Part shown: positions 2,965 to 33,221 of the stretch, piece after piece
Layout: the number at the start of each line of letters is the position of its first letter
Numbering within the stretch: position 1 is the first letter of the stretch
Source of the DNA: a virus
Taxonomy: Duplodnaviria > Heunggongvirae > Uroviricota > Caudoviricetes
Reading direction: 5' to 3' (one strand)
DNA length: 33,961 nt
Virus record (IMG/VR): IMGVR_UViG_2636415959_000001
Coordinates: 1-33,961 of that record
Notes under the pieces: generated by a model
The model's input: the letters and a program-made list of their open reading frames with translations, nothing else
Databases searched by the model: none
What the model was told of the DNA's origin: nothing
Program-made: the position numbers and the translations under genes

Positions 2965-3527
2965 GCCAGATGCTCCTCAATAATTTTGAAAGCATCATCA
3001 CGGCATGGCATCACGACGAACTCAGGATTACCGTATGCAGTGTTGATCACTGGATCGAACTGAATGCGAACCGCTCCAGCCTCACCGGAAGGGCGTAACT
3101 GGATGGGAATAAACTTCCGCTCGCGACCAAACATCTTTTCCGGATAACTGAGGTATTCAGCCCGGATAACCGGATTGATACTGAAATCCACTTTTTTCGG
3201 GATGACGCGTTCCATATCAGGAAAGCGACCATCAACAAGTTTGATGCCGGTGATCGAAATCCGGCGTTCGAATGCGTCGCGGTGAATGGCAAACGCTTCT
3301 TTGTTAAATACCAGTTCAGTGGTTTCCGCTTTCGCCGGAACCGGCCCTTCAAACTGGACGATGATGTTTTTCTTCGTCCGGATGCCGTGCTCCATGCGCA
3401 GGGCTACATGCCCGTTAGTCGACTCGATATATTTCGGAGTGATGTGCACACCATTCAGGTAGTAACGGACATCATTTTTTGCTGCGCATACCAGAGCTGC
3501 GCGAATAAGTTTCGACTGGAGGATCAT
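2961..3527 (-). CDS. Truncated DNA polymerase III beta sliding clamp (DnaN)-like protein
   Basis: 188 aa; motifs ..NDVRYYLNGVHI.., ..KLVDGRFPDMERVIPKK.. and C-terminal ..FVVMPCR.. parallel E. coli DnaN segments (..HQDVRYYLNGMLF.., ..KLVDGRFPDYRRVLPKN.., ..YVVMPMRL) as I recall them; covers roughly clamp domain II and part of III only. Confidence 0.6.
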   Translation of the reverse strand: MILQSKLIRAALVCAAKNDVRYYLNGVHITPKYIESTNGHVALRMEHGIRTKKNIIVQFEGPVPAKAETTELVFNKEAFAIHRDAFERRISITGIKLVDGRFPDMERVIPKKVDFSINPVIRAEYLSYPEKMFGRERKFIPIQLRPSGEAGAVRIQFDPVINTAYGNPEFVVMPCRDDAFKIIEEHLA

Positions 3528-4360
3528 GCTTCCACCTCCACGAAGATCTCTTTCGGATCCTTACGCAGAACGAAGCCACCAAATTCAGGATGTTGCCAGC
3601 GCTTGCGTTTACCGCTTGGGCGAACGGATTCTTCCAGCAGCACCTGAAATGCGTGAATGAACGATTCATGATGTACGCACAGCCCACGAACTCCCGGCAA
3701 CTGTCTGGAGGGCAGGTTTGCGAACTGAACAAGACGACGGCACGAAGGATCGGACAGACTGGTTTCCCATGACACTTTGTGTACCGGAACGAATTCGGCA
3801 TCGGTATTCACGAATTCAGTCGAACTAATGCGCCGTTGTGGTAGAGAGGAAGATACAGGCGAAGCAGCAACCAGGTTGGCGCCACTCACTTCCATTACTG
3901 CTTTCATCGTCGCTGATGCGGTTGCTTCGGCCACAACGCGGGCCAGTGAAAGAATGTCATGGTTCATGCTGATTTCTTGCTGGTGTGATTTAGCTACTGG
4001 CACTTCTTTGCTGTATGTGCCTGTGGTCATGATGGCAGGGAGTACATCCTCACAAACCCAGTCCTGTACGCGTTCAGCCGATGGAAGCTGGCTTCGCAGG
4101 ATAAGGCGGAACAAGTCGGCCTGACCAGCCAGCTGAGTACCGCGCGGTTTTTCACCAAAACCCAATTCTAACGATTCGTTATAATCAAGTTTAATCAACG
4201 CCTTGCAGTGGTCTTTCAGCGCTTTTGCTGGGTTCGTATAACCGAGGGATTTAGCCAGTTCTACAGCGTCAAAGGCTGGTTTTCCCTCATAAAGAATTCC
4301 GCTCATAGAAAAATTGAGTTCTTCTGAGCTAAAGGCCATAAGTTGGTTTTTCATCATCAT
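3524..4360 (-). CDS. BRO-N (KilA-N/Bro N-terminal) domain protein, antirepressor-like
   Basis: 278 aa; N-terminal ..FDAVELAKSLGYTNPAKALKDHC..LFRLILRSQLPSAERVQDWVCEDVLPAI.. fits the BRO-N pattern; C-terminal half unrecognised. Confidence 0.65.
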   Translation of the reverse strand: MMMKNQLMAFSSEELNFSMSGILYEGKPAFDAVELAKSLGYTNPAKALKDHCKALIKLDYNESLELGFGEKPRGTQLAGQADLFRLILRSQLPSAERVQDWVCEDVLPAIMTTGTYSKEVPVAKSHQQEISMNHDILSLARVVAEATASATMKAVMEVSGANLVAASPVSSSLPQRRISSTEFVNTDAEFVPVHKVSWETSLSDPSCRRLVQFANLPSRQLPGVRGLCVHHESFIHAFQVLLEESVRPSGKRKRWQHPEFGGFVLRKDPKEIFVEVEA

Positions 4361-5328: not shown

Positions 5329-5715
5329 TCATACGAAGCGCCTCACAGCTAAAGAAGCGACTACCCGACCATGAATTTTGATATCTTTCAGCTCATCGGT
5401 ATTGAGGGTGAAGGTTTCGTAATGATGGTTGTCCGAAATAATTTTCAATGAACCACAAACTAATGGCTCAACTCTCTTAATAAAAAGGCACGGACGGCCA
5501 AATACATCCATCGTATAAACATAAATGCCAGGGGTTAGCGTGCGGCCACCGCAATCAACGAAAGCCACAACCTCACATGGTTCGATGGTCGGCTGCATTG
5601 AGTCTCCCTCCATCATGCAGCTCTTAACACGGTTACCAAAGTCATTAATGTTGTCAGAGCCGAACAGCATTTGAGGTGTTTTAATTGGCTGATTAATTGC
5701 GATAGCGTTTTGCAT
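5329..5715 (-). CDS. Standalone S24 (LexA/CI/UmuD-type) peptidase-domain protein without HTH
   Basis: 128 aa; GDSMQP serine motif and downstream ..LFIKRVE.. lysine motif parallel the C-terminal domain of the adjacent CI (..GNSMEPVI.. / ..GWKRLKI..); no N-terminal DNA-binding domain; RBS GAGGAA 7 nt upstream. Confidence 0.6.
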   Translation of the reverse strand: MQNAIAINQPIKTPQMLFGSDNINDFGNRVKSCMMEGDSMQPTIEPCEVVAFVDCGGRTLTPGIYVYTMDVFGRPCLFIKRVEPLVCGSLKIISDNHHYETFTLNTDELKDIKIHGRVVASLAVRRFV

Positions 5716-5788
5716 TTTAATTTCCTCAGGGTGAGTTTATCCCCACGCAAAAAGGTGTTATTTATGATTAAATGTGTTAATTAGTTAG

Positions 5789-6082
5789 TTAAATAGCAGA
5801 GAACATTTTTTTAATGTCAGGATGGTCATCTATGATTTTTTTAGCATCATCACATGCTTCTTCATATGACTTGAAGAAATCAACCAGAACAAAATAATTA
5901 TCTACACGTTCGTAGATAGCGAATTCCAAACCATCAATAAAAGTGGTGTTAAATTCGTAATCAAAATCATTCTGATGAGGCTGTGCAGCTCGTAAATAAA
6001 TCCAGTGTGAATTTGCTGCTTTAAGCTTGGCGTGGATATCAAATGCCTGGCTCGCTGGGTTTGGTTGGGAGGTTGTATTCAT
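5789..6082 (-). CDS. Hypothetical protein (97 aa), first gene leftward of the repressor
   Basis: ORF in AT-rich context downstream of the cI terminator and the OL-like palindromes. Confidence 0.5.
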   Translation of the reverse strand: MNTTSQPNPASQAFDIHAKLKAANSHWIYLRAAQPHQNDFDYEFNTTFIDGLEFAIYERVDNYFVLVDFFKSYEEACDDAKKIIDDHPDIKKMFSAI

Positions 6083-6109
6083 CTCGTTGGCTCCGTTGTT
6101 TGCCGATGA

Positions 6110-6160
6110 AATGAGAATACTTAAGTATTAATTGAAGGTCAATGGTATTAATACAAAAAG
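6110..6160. promoter_or_regulatory. Putative left operator/promoter (OL/PL-like) with TAATAC/GTATTA palindromes
   Basis: Perfect palindrome AATACTTAAGTATT (6116-6129) and GTATTAATAC (6145-6154); the same half-site recurs in the cI-cro intergenic region. Confidence 0.4.
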
Positions 6161-6203
6161 AATAATAGATTTCTTATGTATTTGTTATTGAAGATTATTT
6201 TAG

Positions 6204-6244
6204 TAATAAAAAAGCCGACACTATGGTCGGCTTGGTGCTTTTTT
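6204..6244 (-). terminator. Intrinsic terminator downstream of cI
   Basis: Stem GCCGAC / GTCGGC (6214-6219 / 6226-6231), 6-nt loop, followed on the minus strand by a T-run. Confidence 0.55.
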
Positions 6245-6253
6245 GGTAGCGGA

Positions 6254-6946
6254 TCAGAAGATTGTTGATACCCAAAACAGCCTTCCTAAAACCTCAAGAC
6301 TATCCATGTCTACTTCTTCGTCAGGGTATTCATCAGAGTTATAGCTTCTGATTGTCACCTTGTCTGGCCCAGATCTGTAGAGGATTTTTAACCTTTTCCA
6401 TCCACCTTGGTTGATGCCGTAAATTTTACCATCAACGATACGCTTGTCATGGCAGTTTATAGCAACAGTAGAGCCATCAGCGATCACTGGCTCCATGCTA
6501 TTCCCGTGTGCAGCAAAGCATAGAACGCCATCACCATCACTATTAGCTCCCACCTTTCGCAATGTTGCTTTGGAAAACCTAAGTTTTTTGCCATTGTAAT
6601 CATCATTAAGAGCGCTGCCATCTCCACATGCGAACTCGATATCCTTCAAGTAAGGCACCTCTACCTCATCATCCTCAAGCGGCGTTTGCTTATCCCATGG
6701 ATCTATACCAAACATCCTTTGTTCTGGAGTTTTTGCGGGCCCCATGGTGCCTTCACCAGTGCTTAACCATATTGGATCTACATCCAACGCTTTGGCTATA
6801 TCCACGATTTTTCCGCTGGACTGGGCTTTTCCTGAGGTTAGTTTTTGTATGGCCCCCTGGCTTACCCCAACCCTATGCGCTAATTGACTTTGTGTAGCCC
6901 CGGCATGAGCCATCGCCAGCCTTAGTCTTTCTGCAAGTGTGTTCAT
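6254..6946 (-). CDS. cI: CI-like phage repressor (HTH + S24 peptidase)
   Basis: 230 aa; N-terminal HTH (..QSQLAHRVGVSQGAIQKLTSGK..); C-terminal autocleavage domain (GNSMEP, KRLK); divergent from the cro-like gene. Confidence 0.9.
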   Translation of the reverse strand: MNTLAERLRLAMAHAGATQSQLAHRVGVSQGAIQKLTSGKAQSSGKIVDIAKALDVDPIWLSTGEGTMGPAKTPEQRMFGIDPWDKQTPLEDDEVEVPYLKDIEFACGDGSALNDDYNGKKLRFSKATLRKVGANSDGDGVLCFAAHGNSMEPVIADGSTVAINCHDKRIVDGKIYGINQGGWKRLKILYRSGPDKVTIRSYNSDEYPDEEVDMDSLEVLGRLFWVSTIF

Positions 6947-7072
6947 CTAAGTATCTCCGATTTCTGTGCATATTTAATACCACAGGATTAACCATGGCAA
7001 GCGGATAATACTTGATTAATTATTCCTTTGGTATTATTTTATATCTTTAATATTAATACTAAGGGCTTTGTT
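6947..7072. promoter_or_regulatory. Immunity switch region (OR / PRM / PR-like) between cI and cro
   Basis: 126-bp AT-rich divergent intergenic region with repeated TAATAC / GTATTA half-sites (e.g. 6975-6980, 7007-7012, 7032-7036, 7054-7059). Confidence 0.5.
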
Positions 7073-7315
7073 ATGACTGATGAGGTTTTTGAATCCCCAA
7101 TGGCGAAAGCCGTGTACGTTGCTGGTGGGCAAAGTTCGCTTGCTAAAAAGGTTGGCGTTACGCAAGGAGCGGTCTGGAAGTGGGTCAGGGGGGTCAAGAA
7201 AGTTTCTCCTGTCCATGCAGTAGCAGTCTCAAACGCAGTTAATGGAGTTGTTAAGCCTCATGAACTGCGTCCTGATTTGCCGACTCTTTTCCCACACCCG
7301 GGCAATGAGGTGTGA
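7073..7315 (+). CDS. cro: Cro-like HTH regulator
   Basis: 80 aa from ATG 7073; HTH ..SSLAKKVGVTQGAVWKWVRG..; divergent from cI. Confidence 0.7.
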   Translation: MTDEVFESPMAKAVYVAGGQSSLAKKVGVTQGAVWKWVRGVKKVSPVHAVAVSNAVNGVVKPHELRPDLPTLFPHPGNEV

Positions 7316-7316
7316 T

Positions 7317-7514
7317 ATGTCGCACTCAATCACTACCGAAAACCAAATTAAGCCATTGGATATCGATTATCGCGATCCGCGCGGTGTGATTGTGCATGTC
7401 ACCGGCTGGAATCGGGATAAGCAGCAGGTGTATTTCACCAGGCAGAATTATCCGCATGAGTGCATGCAACCGGTCTGGAAGTTTCAACAGTATTTCAAGA
7501 GGTTAACATCATGA
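7317..7514 (+). CDS. Hypothetical protein (65 aa) between cro and the replication gene
   Basis: ORF starting MSHSITTENQ at 7317; occupies the cII-equivalent position but shows no obvious HTH. Confidence 0.4.
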   Translation: MSHSITTENQIKPLDIDYRDPRGVIVHVTGWNRDKQQVYFTRQNYPHECMQPVWKFQQYFKRLTS

Positions 7515-31024: not shown

Positions 31025-31825
31025 ATGCATCGTATAGACACGAAAACCGCGCAGAAGGATAAGTTCGGCGCGGGTAAGAACGGTTTTACCCGTGGTAATC
31101 CCCAGACTGGTACGCCTGCCACCGATCTGGATGATGACTACTTTGACATGTTGCAGGAGGAGCTTTGCAGCGTTGTGGAGGCATCCGGTGCCAGCCTGGA
31201 GAAGGGGCGGCATGACCAGTTGCTTACCGCACTTCGCGCACTGCTGTTAAGCCGCAATAATCCGTTTGGTGATATCAAATCGGACGGCACTGTGCAAACG
31301 GCTCTCGAAAACCTTGGTTTGGGAGAAGGTTCAGCATTACCGGTTGGTGTGCCTGTTCCGTGGCCTTCAGCTACACCACCGACAGGCTGGTTGAAATGCA
31401 ATGGTGCAGCTTTTTCTGCTGAAGAATACCCGGAACTGGCAAAGGCTTACCCGACAAATAAATTGCCTGATTTACGCGGTGAGTTTATTCGTGGCTGGGA
31501 TGATGGACGCGGTGTGGATACGGGGAGGGCAATATTATCATCTCAGGGCGATGCCATACGTAATATCTATGGTGAGTTCAAGACTGTAAACGCCGAAAAT
31601 TATTCAATATGGGAATCAGTAGACTCTTTTAAGGGGGCAGTGGTGCCTTTGAACCCCTCAACGGACAATAGTTATTTCTCCATAATCAATAGTATGTTGA
31701 CACAAAGAACAGATGGCTCTGTTTACCCAACAGTGATTGGCCTTGATGCTTCAAGAATTGTTCCAACTGCAAACGAAAACCGTCCACGAAATATTGCATT
31801 TAACTTTATCGTGAGGGCTGCATAA
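31025..31825 (+). CDS. Tail fibre protein with tail-collar domain
   Basis: 266 aa; ..[49 protein letters not shown].. fits the phage tail-collar motif; C-terminal part AT-rich. Confidence 0.75.
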
Positions 31826-32427
31826 TGGATAACGCTGTATTAAATAGCGAGCTTATTGCCACGAAGGCGGGGAATATTACCGTCTATAGCTATGATGGTG
31901 AAACTCGGGAATATATTTCCACTTCAAATGAATATCTTGCCGTTGGCGTCGGTATCCCGGCATGTTCTTGTTTAGATGCACCAGTTACACATAAAGCTGG
32001 TTATGCAATCTGCCGTTCTGCAGATTTTAACTCATGGGAATATGTGCCAGACCATCGCGGTGAAATCATCTATAGCACCGAAACAGGAGAATCGAAAGAA
32101 ATCACAGCTCTGGGTGATTACCCTGAAAATACAACCACTATCGCCCCGTTAATGCCATATGATAAATGGGATGGTGAGAAATGGGTGACAGATACTGAGG
32201 CACAGCATAGTGCCGCAGTAGACGCGGCAGAAGCACAGCGCCAGTCACTGATTGATGCAGCAATGGCTTCCATTAGTCTGATTCAGCTGAAATTACAGGC
32301 CGGACGTAAACTGACGCAGGCAGAAACAACCAGACTTAACGCCGTGCTGGATTACATTGACGCGGTGACGGCAACAGATACCAGCACCGCGCCGGATGTC
32401 ATCTGGCCTGAACTGCCGGAGGCGTAG
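31825..32427 (+). CDS. Tail fibre assembly protein (Tfa)
   Basis: 200 aa directly after the tail fibre (ATGA overlap); typical Tfa composition. Confidence 0.7.
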   Translation: MDNAVLNSELIATKAGNITVYSYDGETREYISTSNEYLAVGVGIPACSCLDAPVTHKAGYAICRSADFNSWEYVPDHRGEIIYSTETGESKEITALGDYPENTTTIAPLMPYDKWDGEKWVTDTEAQHSAAVDAAEAQRQSLIDAAMASISLIQLKLQAGRKLTQAETTRLNAVLDYIDAVTATDTSTAPDVIWPELPEA

Positions 32428-32818
32428 GCCATTCAATATCGAGTGCTGTTGAAGTATTAATACGCATCAATAGCACTCGATATTCTTTCCATGCCAGTAA
32501 CAGTTTCGTTTCATCATCTGTTGCCATACCTAAATCAACCGCATCCTGAAGCGGAGCTATTACATTCGTTGCCTCTGCTATCAGTGCAGATTTCTTTTCA
32601 TCATTTATTAAGGCTAATTGTTCTGGTGTTGGAGAAGGACGGTCAACAATGACAGGATGACCGTTCTCACCACAGGTAATCATTTTTGTTACACTCTGTG
32701 CATTAATCAGTGTTTTCCACTCTGATTCCGAGATTTCCACTGCATCATCAGGAATATTGGTGCCGTGAAATTCAGTCGAATAAAATCCGTTTGTCGATGC
32801 AGAATAAAAATATGACAT
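32399..32818 (-). CDS. Tail fibre assembly protein, second copy in inverted orientation
   Basis: 139 aa from ATG 32818 (MSYFYSASTNGFYSTEF.., a typical Tfa N-terminus); convergent with the plus-strand Tfa. Confidence 0.65.
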   Translation of the reverse strand: MSYFYSASTNGFYSTEFHGTNIPDDAVEISESEWKTLINAQSVTKMITCGENGHPVIVDRPSPTPEQLALINDEKKSALIAEATNVIAPLQDAVDLGMATDDETKLLLAWKEYRVLLMRINTSTALDIEWPTPPAVQAR

Positions 32819-32822
32819 TTCG

Positions 32823-33221
32823 TTAATATCCCATTGCAATGTAATACGCATCAGCAGATGAACCATATCCTGAACCGGGCGACACTGTAATATTAAATCC
32901 AGTGTTCTGGACATTTGTCGCCGATACAGTCGGCTGCCCTGACGCGCCAGTAACGTTCAATGTAACTGTGACAGCAAGGACTCTTGAGAATGTCATCGGG
33001 AACCTTATCTCGTATGTTGAAGAAACATTCGGGGAGCCATTCAACTGACCGCACTGTAAAATTAAACCAGACGGAAATTTTTGCGCAGCAGCCGTTGCGG
33101 TATTACTTGACGCGAACAGGCTCATATCAGGTATCTGATTCGCCCCTGTACCTACATTCCTTTTAGCTGCTTCTCCCAAACCAACGTTTACGAAAATAAA
33201 AATCCGCCACAGCGTAATCAA
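32823..33221 (-). other. Inverted tail-fibre C-terminal (receptor-binding-like) coding segment lacking its own N-terminal part
   Basis: Minus-strand ORF ending 4 nt before the inverted Tfa; track start is a non-ATG codon inside the dinI terminator; first in-frame ATG at 33125 has no clear RBS. Confidence 0.45.

Follow-up and report, generated by a model that had tools for sequence, protein, structure and literature searches.

The virus record IMGVR_UViG_2636415959_000001, analyzed here as one window of 33,961 nt (the whole stretch at its full length), is a lambda-like, mosaic prophage of the HK97 type whose immunity region holds two clusters of the hexamer TAATAC or its complement GTATTA, one on each side of the repressor gene cI. 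Judging from sequence comparisons, these hexamers are very likely half-sites of operators for the repressor CI and for Cro in an ordinary lambda-like immunity switch. The recurring unit is an imperfect 18-bp dyad, TTAATAC-N4-GTATTAA (N4, four spacer bases), with the 14-bp core AATAC-N4-GTATT, and it is present as four strong putative sites, two in the control region left of cI and two between cI and the cro-type gene.

The placements of the hexamers given in a preliminary description of this DNA hold. AATACTTAAGTATT forms a perfect 14-bp palindrome at 6116-6129, GTATTAATAC forms a perfect 10-bp palindrome at 6145-6154, and the 126-bp cI-cro gap contains four hexamers, at 6975, 7006, 7031 (minus strand) and 7054. 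The gene calls are likewise upheld by Pfam and PHROG matches. The cI-type gene (6254-6946, minus strand) encodes a protein of 230 residues with an N-terminal HTH_3 and a C-terminal Peptidase_S24 domain (Pfam), assigned to PHROG 4, transcriptional repressor, whereas the cro-type gene (7073-7315, plus strand) encodes 80 residues matching Pfam YdaS_toxin (5.5e-18), weakly P22_Cro, and PHROG 35. The two genes diverge from the gap between them, as expected of a lambdoid switch.

The recurrence of the hexamer is real and far above chance. It occurs 17 times in the whole window, compared to 8.3 +/- 2.9 times in shuffled sequences, and 7 of the 17 copies fall within 297 bp, namely, the two control regions of 171 bp and 126 bp. 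When these regions were shuffled 5000 times with their dinucleotide content preserved, 0.44 +/- 0.65 copies were obtained, with a maximum of 4. TAATAC/GTATTA is the most frequent hexamer there, tied with the overlapping TATTAA/TTAATA. Both regions contain ~30% guanine plus cytosine (GC), and equal frequency of the motif in other AT-rich DNA had been named as the result that would speak against the proposal; such DNA (~1.8 kb with 34-38% GC) carries 2 copies, compared to 7 in 425 bp.

The hexamers are organized into larger units. The AATACTTAAGTATT palindrome is the 14-bp core of one 18-bp dyad, and repeat finding identified 6975-6991 and 7020-7036 as inverted copies of one 17-nt sequence (88% identity). 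When all 18-mers of the two control regions were compared with each other, the best pair was 6149-6166 and the reverse complement of 7019-7036 (16/18), followed by 6974-6991 and the reverse complement of 7020-7037 (15/18). With up to 3 mismatches allowed, the pattern TTAATACNNNNGTATTAA has 5 matches in 34 kb against 0.74 expected, 4 of them in the control regions, although this excess is partly circular because the pattern was derived from the same sequence; the comparisons with relatives described below are independent of that derivation. The fifth match (31826-31843), with 3 mismatches and located within coding sequence, was rejected as a chance occurrence. Thus, each control region holds two 18-bp sites, with a mutual identity of 13-16/18, and in this respect the region shows the repeated dyads of a lambdoid switch.

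The four sites lie over or next to putative promoter elements. On the left, a promoter scan detected a leftward promoter-like sequence (PL; 6142-6114, minus strand; score 9/12), with TTGACC (6142-6137) and TATTCT (6119-6114) separated by 17 nt, reading into an open reading frame (ORF) at 5789-6082. The putative left operator site OL1 (6114-6131, minus strand; TTAATAC-TTAA-GTATTCT; 2 mismatches to the pattern) covers the PL spacer and -10 element, and putative OL2 (6148-6165, plus strand; TTAATAC-AAAA-AGAATAA; 3 mismatches) lies 6 bp upstream of the PL -35 element. In the cI-cro gap, we infer the positions of the two promoters from hexamer matches of 8-9/12 read by eye together with positional homology to relatives, whereas the PL overlapping 6114-6131 comes from the scan. 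The putative promoter for repressor maintenance (PRM; 7000-6972, minus strand) consists of TTGCCA (7000-6995), 17 nt and TTAAAT (6977-6972), followed by the cI ribosome-binding site GGAG. Its spacer and -10 element would be covered by the putative right operator (OR) site next to cI (6974-6991, plus strand; TTAATAC-CACA-GGATTAA; 1 mismatch), which occupies the position of OR3 in lambda. The putative rightward promoter (PR; 7012-7040, plus strand) consists of TTGATT (7012-7017), 17 nt and TATTTT (7035-7040), with an extended -10 element, TGgTATTAT at 7029-7037, as an alternative. The putative OR site next to cro (7020-7037, minus strand; ATAATAC-CAAA-GGAATAA; 3 mismatches) would cover the PR spacer and -10 element, and its position is that of OR1 in lambda.

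Conservation of the sites and co-variation with the recognition helix

The operators of related phages had been suggested as a check on the proposal, and they support it: relatives with the same recognition helix keep the sites at the same positions, and relatives with other helices carry other half-sites. We compared 44 loci encoding relatives of the repressor, located on 4 genome contigs (one from Kosakonia cowanii) and 40 viral contigs, the latter being a subset of roughly 600 viral-contig homologues. The closest deposited phage, Aeromonas phage AsXd-1 (MH178096), has the same immunity region (97.7% identity over 5711-7322), in which its record annotates all genes as hypothetical. The CI recognition helix, VSQGAIQKL, lies inside a 434-like N-terminal helix-turn-helix domain; against Protein Data Bank (PDB) sequences, CI residues 1-65 match 434 Cro with an E value of 1.9e-7 and the 434 repressor with 8e-5. 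Even the most divergent of the aligned relatives with the same immunity (loci L002, L035, L036 and L037; 87-95% CI identity) retain an unaltered helix VSQGAIQKLTSGK. Furthermore, the four sites are found at the same distances from cI in these loci as well as in L044 and L081, all of which encode the helix SQGAIQK; in L081, all four are still present although the N-terminal domain is only 67% identical.

Changes among these relatives are confined to the central four bases, to AATAC becoming AATCC, or to a weak half moving toward the consensus. OL1 is kept in all of them, with the version TTAATCC-TAAA-GTATTCT in L037, and both PL hexamers are nearly invariant. At the site 6974-6991, variation is limited to the centre, position 8 and the final base, and the site 7020-7037 is kept throughout, with changes that are central or toward the consensus. 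The central bases seen across relatives include CACA, CATG, CGTG, CATA, GATC and CTTG. The PRM -35 element is conserved and PR is conserved in L037. OL2 is nearer to the ideal dyad in L002 (TTAATCT-TTTT-GTATTAA) and L037 (TTAATAT-TATT-GTATTAA) than in the window. An alternative register for this site, TTAATAC-CATT-GACCTTC over the PL -35 element, has 3 mismatches in L037, but in the window it has 5/14 compared to 3 for 6148-6165; it is disfavoured, and 6148-6165 appears preferable because of the fewer mismatches, the 16/18 match to an OR site and the improvement in L002 and L037.

Among 28 distinct haplotypes, variation was seen in 5 of the 56 half-site columns, in 9 of the 16 central ones and in 80 of 159 elsewhere in the intergenic DNA, corresponding to 0.12, 1.0 and 1.38 variant cells per column, respectively; as many relatives are nearly identical, these counts are descriptive and do not represent independent events. 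The pattern is that of the 434 type, in which the outer bases of a 14-bp dyad are conserved and the centre is free to vary. Yersinia phage YP3 (PV092592; ~60% identity), which encodes the same helix, has two sites of the AATAC type, one shortly upstream of cI (TTAATCC-GATC-GTATTAA) and one fused to the PL -35 element (TTAATAC-TATA-GTATTGA). YP3 thus shares with the window the recognition helix and the AATAC/AATCC dyads, but differs in carrying another gene opposite cI, in a gap of only 48 bp and in a 25-bp spacing at PL.

To the heteroimmune homologues belong Salmonella phage UPF_BP1, Providencia phage PSTCR7lys, Klebsiella phage ST101-KPC2phi6.1 and Escherichia phages PA28, SH2026Stx1 and HK639, with CI N-terminal domains 55-70% identical to that of the window. 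They share the 5-N4-5 layout, the placement relative to PL and to the -35 and -10 elements of PRM, and a homologous Cro, whereas the half-site sequence and one helix residue (Ala or Pro for Gly) are different. In ST101-KPC2phi6.1, for example, the cI-proximal dyad also fills the PRM spacer, the -35 hexamer TTGCCG occupies the position of its counterpart in the window, and the distance between the outer dyads is 47 bp (46 bp in the window). The heteroimmune homologues have three or four clean OR dyads, whereas the window has two strong and one or two weak ones. Three loci with 60-66% CI identity (L003, L041 and L042) belong to a different operator class and hence could not be used for footprinting, but served as a comparison set.

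The best 5-N4-5 dyad upstream of cI was searched automatically in more than 40 distinct homologues. Wherever the helix SQPAIQK is present (PA28, SH2026Stx1, HK639 and viral contigs), the dyad is ATAAC-N4-GTTAT, and wherever the helix is SQAAIQK (UPF_BP1, PSTCR7lys, ST101-KPC2phi6.1 and viral contigs), it is ACAAC-N4-GTTGT. Within the window's own group, the six close members gave AATAC-N4-GTATT as the best dyad. The automated search picked other pentamers in four relatives with an identical helix (L002, L037, L081 and YP3), and the sites of the AATAC type in these four come from a fixed-pattern scan and inspection by eye. The Cro-type protein of the window has the recognition helix VTQGAVWKW, sharing the Q-G-A start with the CI helix, and the Cro helices follow the same division: GVTQGAVWKW in the window, GVSQPAVHKW in the Pro class and GVSQ(A/Q/S)AV(Q/Y/F)KW in the Ala class. 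The co-variation suggests that the layout is a property of the family, that the half-site tracks the helix and that CI and Cro share the helix start. Of the indirect evidence that CI and Cro read the dyads, this joint variation of helix, half-site and Cro is the strongest.

Across the more than 40 immunity regions (loci L046-L053 and L081-L117, compared with 6737-6946 on the minus strand and 7073-7315 on the plus strand of the window), the CI residue after Ser-Gln (Gly, Ala or Pro; Gly31 in the window) goes with AATAC, ACAAC or ATAAC, respectively, and the Cro residue matches. It is conceivable, if rather doubtful, that this one position of the recognition helix, following the invariant Ser-Gln and mirrored in a Cro of unrelated length, is a natural specificity switch. 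If so, Gly would specify AATAC, Ala (Gln or Ser in Cro) ACAAC and Pro ATAAC. The window would then represent the class with the fewest members (Gly), and a new immunity type could result when CI and Cro each change by one residue in concert and each half-site changes at two bases. In either case, the co-variation in the two proteins could serve as a natural series for the evolution of repressor specificity. As a side observation on one of these loci, the repressor coding sequence in the UPF_BP1 record (L046 1384-1494) is annotated from 1384 and overlaps cro, whereas the homologous start is the ATG at 1492; the annotated N-terminus thus probably takes in the whole operator region.

Proposed switch and alternative readings

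In the proposed switch, CI dimers and Cro dimers would recognize the AATAC-N4-GTATT dyad, with the helix-turn-helix of each monomer reading one half-site, as in 434. CI bound at 6114-6131 and 7020-7037 would occlude PL and PR and so keep early lytic transcription off in the lysogen, and 6148-6165 would add a second dimer at PL. The site 6974-6991 could be filled by excess CI, or by Cro after induction, turning PRM off in the manner of lambda OR3, and RecA-stimulated self-cleavage, suggested by the S24 domain alone, would lift repression. The work of Koudelka, Harrison and Ptashne is said to show that 434 operators with A/T-rich centres bind the repressor better. By analogy, and speculatively, the sites with the centres TTAA, AAAA and CAAA might bind CI more strongly than the PRM site (CACA), and a weaker PRM site would fit an OR3-like role. 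Binding itself, like the filling order, cooperativity and looping, is something we infer for this switch.

Several points weigh against this reading, in addition to the circularity of the pattern count and the redundancy of the relatives pointed out above. The promoter scan of the cI-cro gap gave nothing above threshold, and the PR and PRM hexamers are weak. In the classic arrangement, three sites lie ~20-24 bp apart, but each control region here has two strong sites, with centre-to-centre distances of 34 bp (OL) and 46 bp (OR); three adjacent sites at about two helical turns were found in neither region, the candidate third sites being weak and not conserved. The candidate for a middle OR site, at 7005-7022, overlaps both the putative PR -35 element and, by 3 bp, the site 7020-7037 (15 bp centre to centre). 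It is the site over PRM that comes closest to the ideal dyad, so that the palindrome match is no simple predictor of the filling order. Finally, in the literature on AsXd-1, on lambdoid operators and recognition helices and on the literal site sequences, we found no CI binding data and no description of operators with these sequences; the AsXd-1 papers do not treat operators.

The preliminary description had proposed AATAC/GTATT half-sites as the basis of the operators. That part is supported for both flanks of cI, given the geometry, promoter overlap, conservation and helix co-variation, but not every hexamer lies in a strong site. The strongest competing possibility, although an improbable one, is that each TAATAC/GTATTA marks a separate operator, including GTATTAATAC and all four cI-cro hexamers, for a total of six or more sites or lambda-like triplets. 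The case of GTATTAATAC argues against this. Its half-sites stand back to back with no spacer, a geometry wrong for an operator and unlike the 5-N4-5 of all other sites and of the homologues; its AATAC half belongs to 6148-6165, and its GTATT half would pair with a poor AGGTC across the PL -35 element. The motif GTATTAATA(C/T) does recur in both control regions and is duplicated in L081.

In the cI-cro gap, the hexamers at 6975 and 7031 lie in strong conserved sites, whereas the sites of the other two, 7006 and 7054, are weak or poorly conserved. Allowing 2 mismatches, AATACNNNNGTATT fits both 7007-7020 and 7055-7068, and a middle site would be expected by analogy with ST101-KPC2phi6.1, in which three dyads lie 23-24 bp apart. 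The corresponding candidate weak middle site (7005-7022, core 7007-7020, plus strand; ATAATAC-TTGA-TTAATTA) has mismatches at 2 of the 10 specified core positions. Its region is nearly invariant in the haplotypes, yet the TAATAC at 7006 reads TATTAC in L002 and L037, the two most divergent aligned loci, despite an unchanged helix. The TAATAC at 7054-7059 (plus strand), between the putative PR -10 element and the cro ribosome-binding site, is an orphan: it fits AATACTAAGGGCTT with 2 mismatches and a poor right half, has no partner half at N4 spacing and reads TAATCG in L037, again with the same helix. It is probably not an essential operator. The same probably holds for a weak candidate third left site (6169-6182, plus strand; ATTTC-TTAT-GTATT; 2/10 mismatches), the good half of which is lost in L035 and L036 and which lies in a region unalignable in L037. 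Two further candidates, 7039-7056 and 7053-7070, are likewise weak and not conserved.

It is very improbable that the dyads are read by a regulator other than CI, such as Cro alone, a host factor, the Ant-like protein (3524-4360) or the S24-only protein (5329-5715) encoded nearby. The evidence tying CI to the sites is indirect, and Cro, whose helix begins with the same Q-G-A, might be their principal reader; but the CI helix and the class of half-site vary together in more than 40 distinct relatives, the sites lie at PL and PR, where CI must act for immunity, and the S24-only protein lacks a DNA-binding domain. Equally hard to maintain is the notion that the hexamer excess is a by-product of promoter or AT-rich sequence (-10-like elements, UP-like tracts) with no recognition motif: GTATTA does overlap -10-like hexamers at PL (TATTCT) and the candidate PR (TATTAT) and both regions are poor in GC, yet local shuffles yield 0.44 copies against 7 observed, other AT-rich DNA of the window is motif-poor, the units are 18-bp dyads recurring at 15-16/18 identity, conserved halves with variable centres are a signature of dimer binding rather than of promoters, and in relatives a different repressor helix comes with a different half-site under an unchanged promoter layout.

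The preferred reading, CI and Cro operators built on the dyad, supplies an operator model, TTAATAC-N4-GTATTAA with four mapped sites, for an immunity type represented by ~40 viral contigs, a Kosakonia genome and AsXd-1. Such a model would be useful for prophage annotation, for predicting homo-immunity and for the design of induction or reporter experiments. It brings no new principle, since the switch would work like those of lambda and 434.

Gene neighbourhood and side observations

Rightward past cro, the window encodes a DUF4222 protein and an O-like replication initiator. Leftward of cI, it carries a two-way terminator, PL, a 97-residue ORF, the S24-only protein, the Ant-like protein and an integrase. 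The intrinsic terminator (6212-6233, both strands), found by a terminator scan between the cI stop codon and the PL region, has a stem kept with compensating changes in relatives. Family searches gave no match for the 97-residue leftward ORF, and they recognized no homologue of N in the first PL gene. The S24-only protein (5329-5715, minus strand; 128 residues) has an S24 peptidase domain of the CI C-terminal type (PHROG 6201, 4e-38), and the domain and PHROG searches revealed no DNA-binding domain in it; it could be a UmuD-like or repressor-interfering protein. Its similarity to the C-terminal domain of the resident CI is faint (29% over 56 residues, E 0.015). The leftward operon also encodes the Ant/BRO-type anti-repressor-like protein (3524-4360, minus strand; PHROG 130, 2e-34), its gene being located between the integrase gene and the immunity region. 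An Rfam scan of the whole window gave no match.

The short PL leader CTCATTTCATCGGCAAACAACGGAGCCAnnGAGATG (6083-6113, minus strand; L047 2320-2353; in L053 after cI) is conserved despite different operators (YP3, LMessi), and is also conserved in L035, L036 and L037, whose first PL gene differs entirely. Such conservation across different operators and genes suggests a conserved translation-initiation or recombination junction.

A third copy of GTATTAATAC (32454-32463) was considered as a distant operator and rejected: it has no N4 dyad partner and sits in a hairpin loop beside the tail genes. Because it lacks a dyad partner, it is probably unrelated to the operators. The hairpin (32435-32485; 18-bp stem, -29 kcal/mol, z = -7.3) lies just past the stop codon of an ORF in the tail region (31825-32427), where it falls within the 3' end of a convergent ORF (32399-32914); it may be a two-way terminator.

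The late region is ~96% identical to that of coliphages HK106 and HK544. A search for the immunity region in 5426 complete E. coli genomes yielded only a short match, at the cro-distal end. AsXd-1 is the only deposited phage with this immunity region, and the other matches of the window are enterobacterial (Kosakonia, Escherichia, Salmonella). Given the Aeromonas name among otherwise enterobacterial matches, the host range or attribution of this phage group may merit a look.

Comparison with lambda and 434

The window differs from lambda in that the DNA-binding domain and the 17-bp operator of the lambda repressor are unrelated to its own in sequence. Moreover, OL lies only ~0.86 kb from OR, and no clear equivalent of OR2 abuts the PRM -35 element. 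The two systems share the divergent cI and cro genes, the S24 self-cleavage domain and a terminator after cI. Lambda has an operator over PRM on the cI side and one over PR on the cro side, plus a further cluster at the leftward promoter beyond cI, and the putative sites of the window would be placed alike.

The closer model is phage 434, the operators of which are dyads of 14 bp, contacted at their outer bases and free in the centre (PDB 2OR1, 1RPE, 1PER and 3CRO) and the CI and Cro proteins of which share the helix residues Q-Q-S-I. The two switches have in common a homologous repressor N-terminal domain and a dyad core of 14 bp, each half of which has 4-5 contacted bases in 434. In both, CI and Cro share the helix start; in 434 they read the same sites, which overlap PR, PRM and PL, and the window would match this at PL and at its putative PR and PRM. 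Unlike 434, the window has conserved TT/AA flanks extending the dyad to 18 bp, two strong sites per region instead of three at ~20-22 bp, and a Cro of the YdaS/P22-Cro family. The half-site is AATA(C) rather than ACAA, and the second helix position is Gly rather than Gln, so that the ACAA-N6-TTGT operator and Q-Q-S-I helix of 434 specificity are replaced by AATA(C)-N4-(G)TATT and S-Q-G-A-I. The same layout with a different specificity suggests that this phage is heteroimmune to 434.

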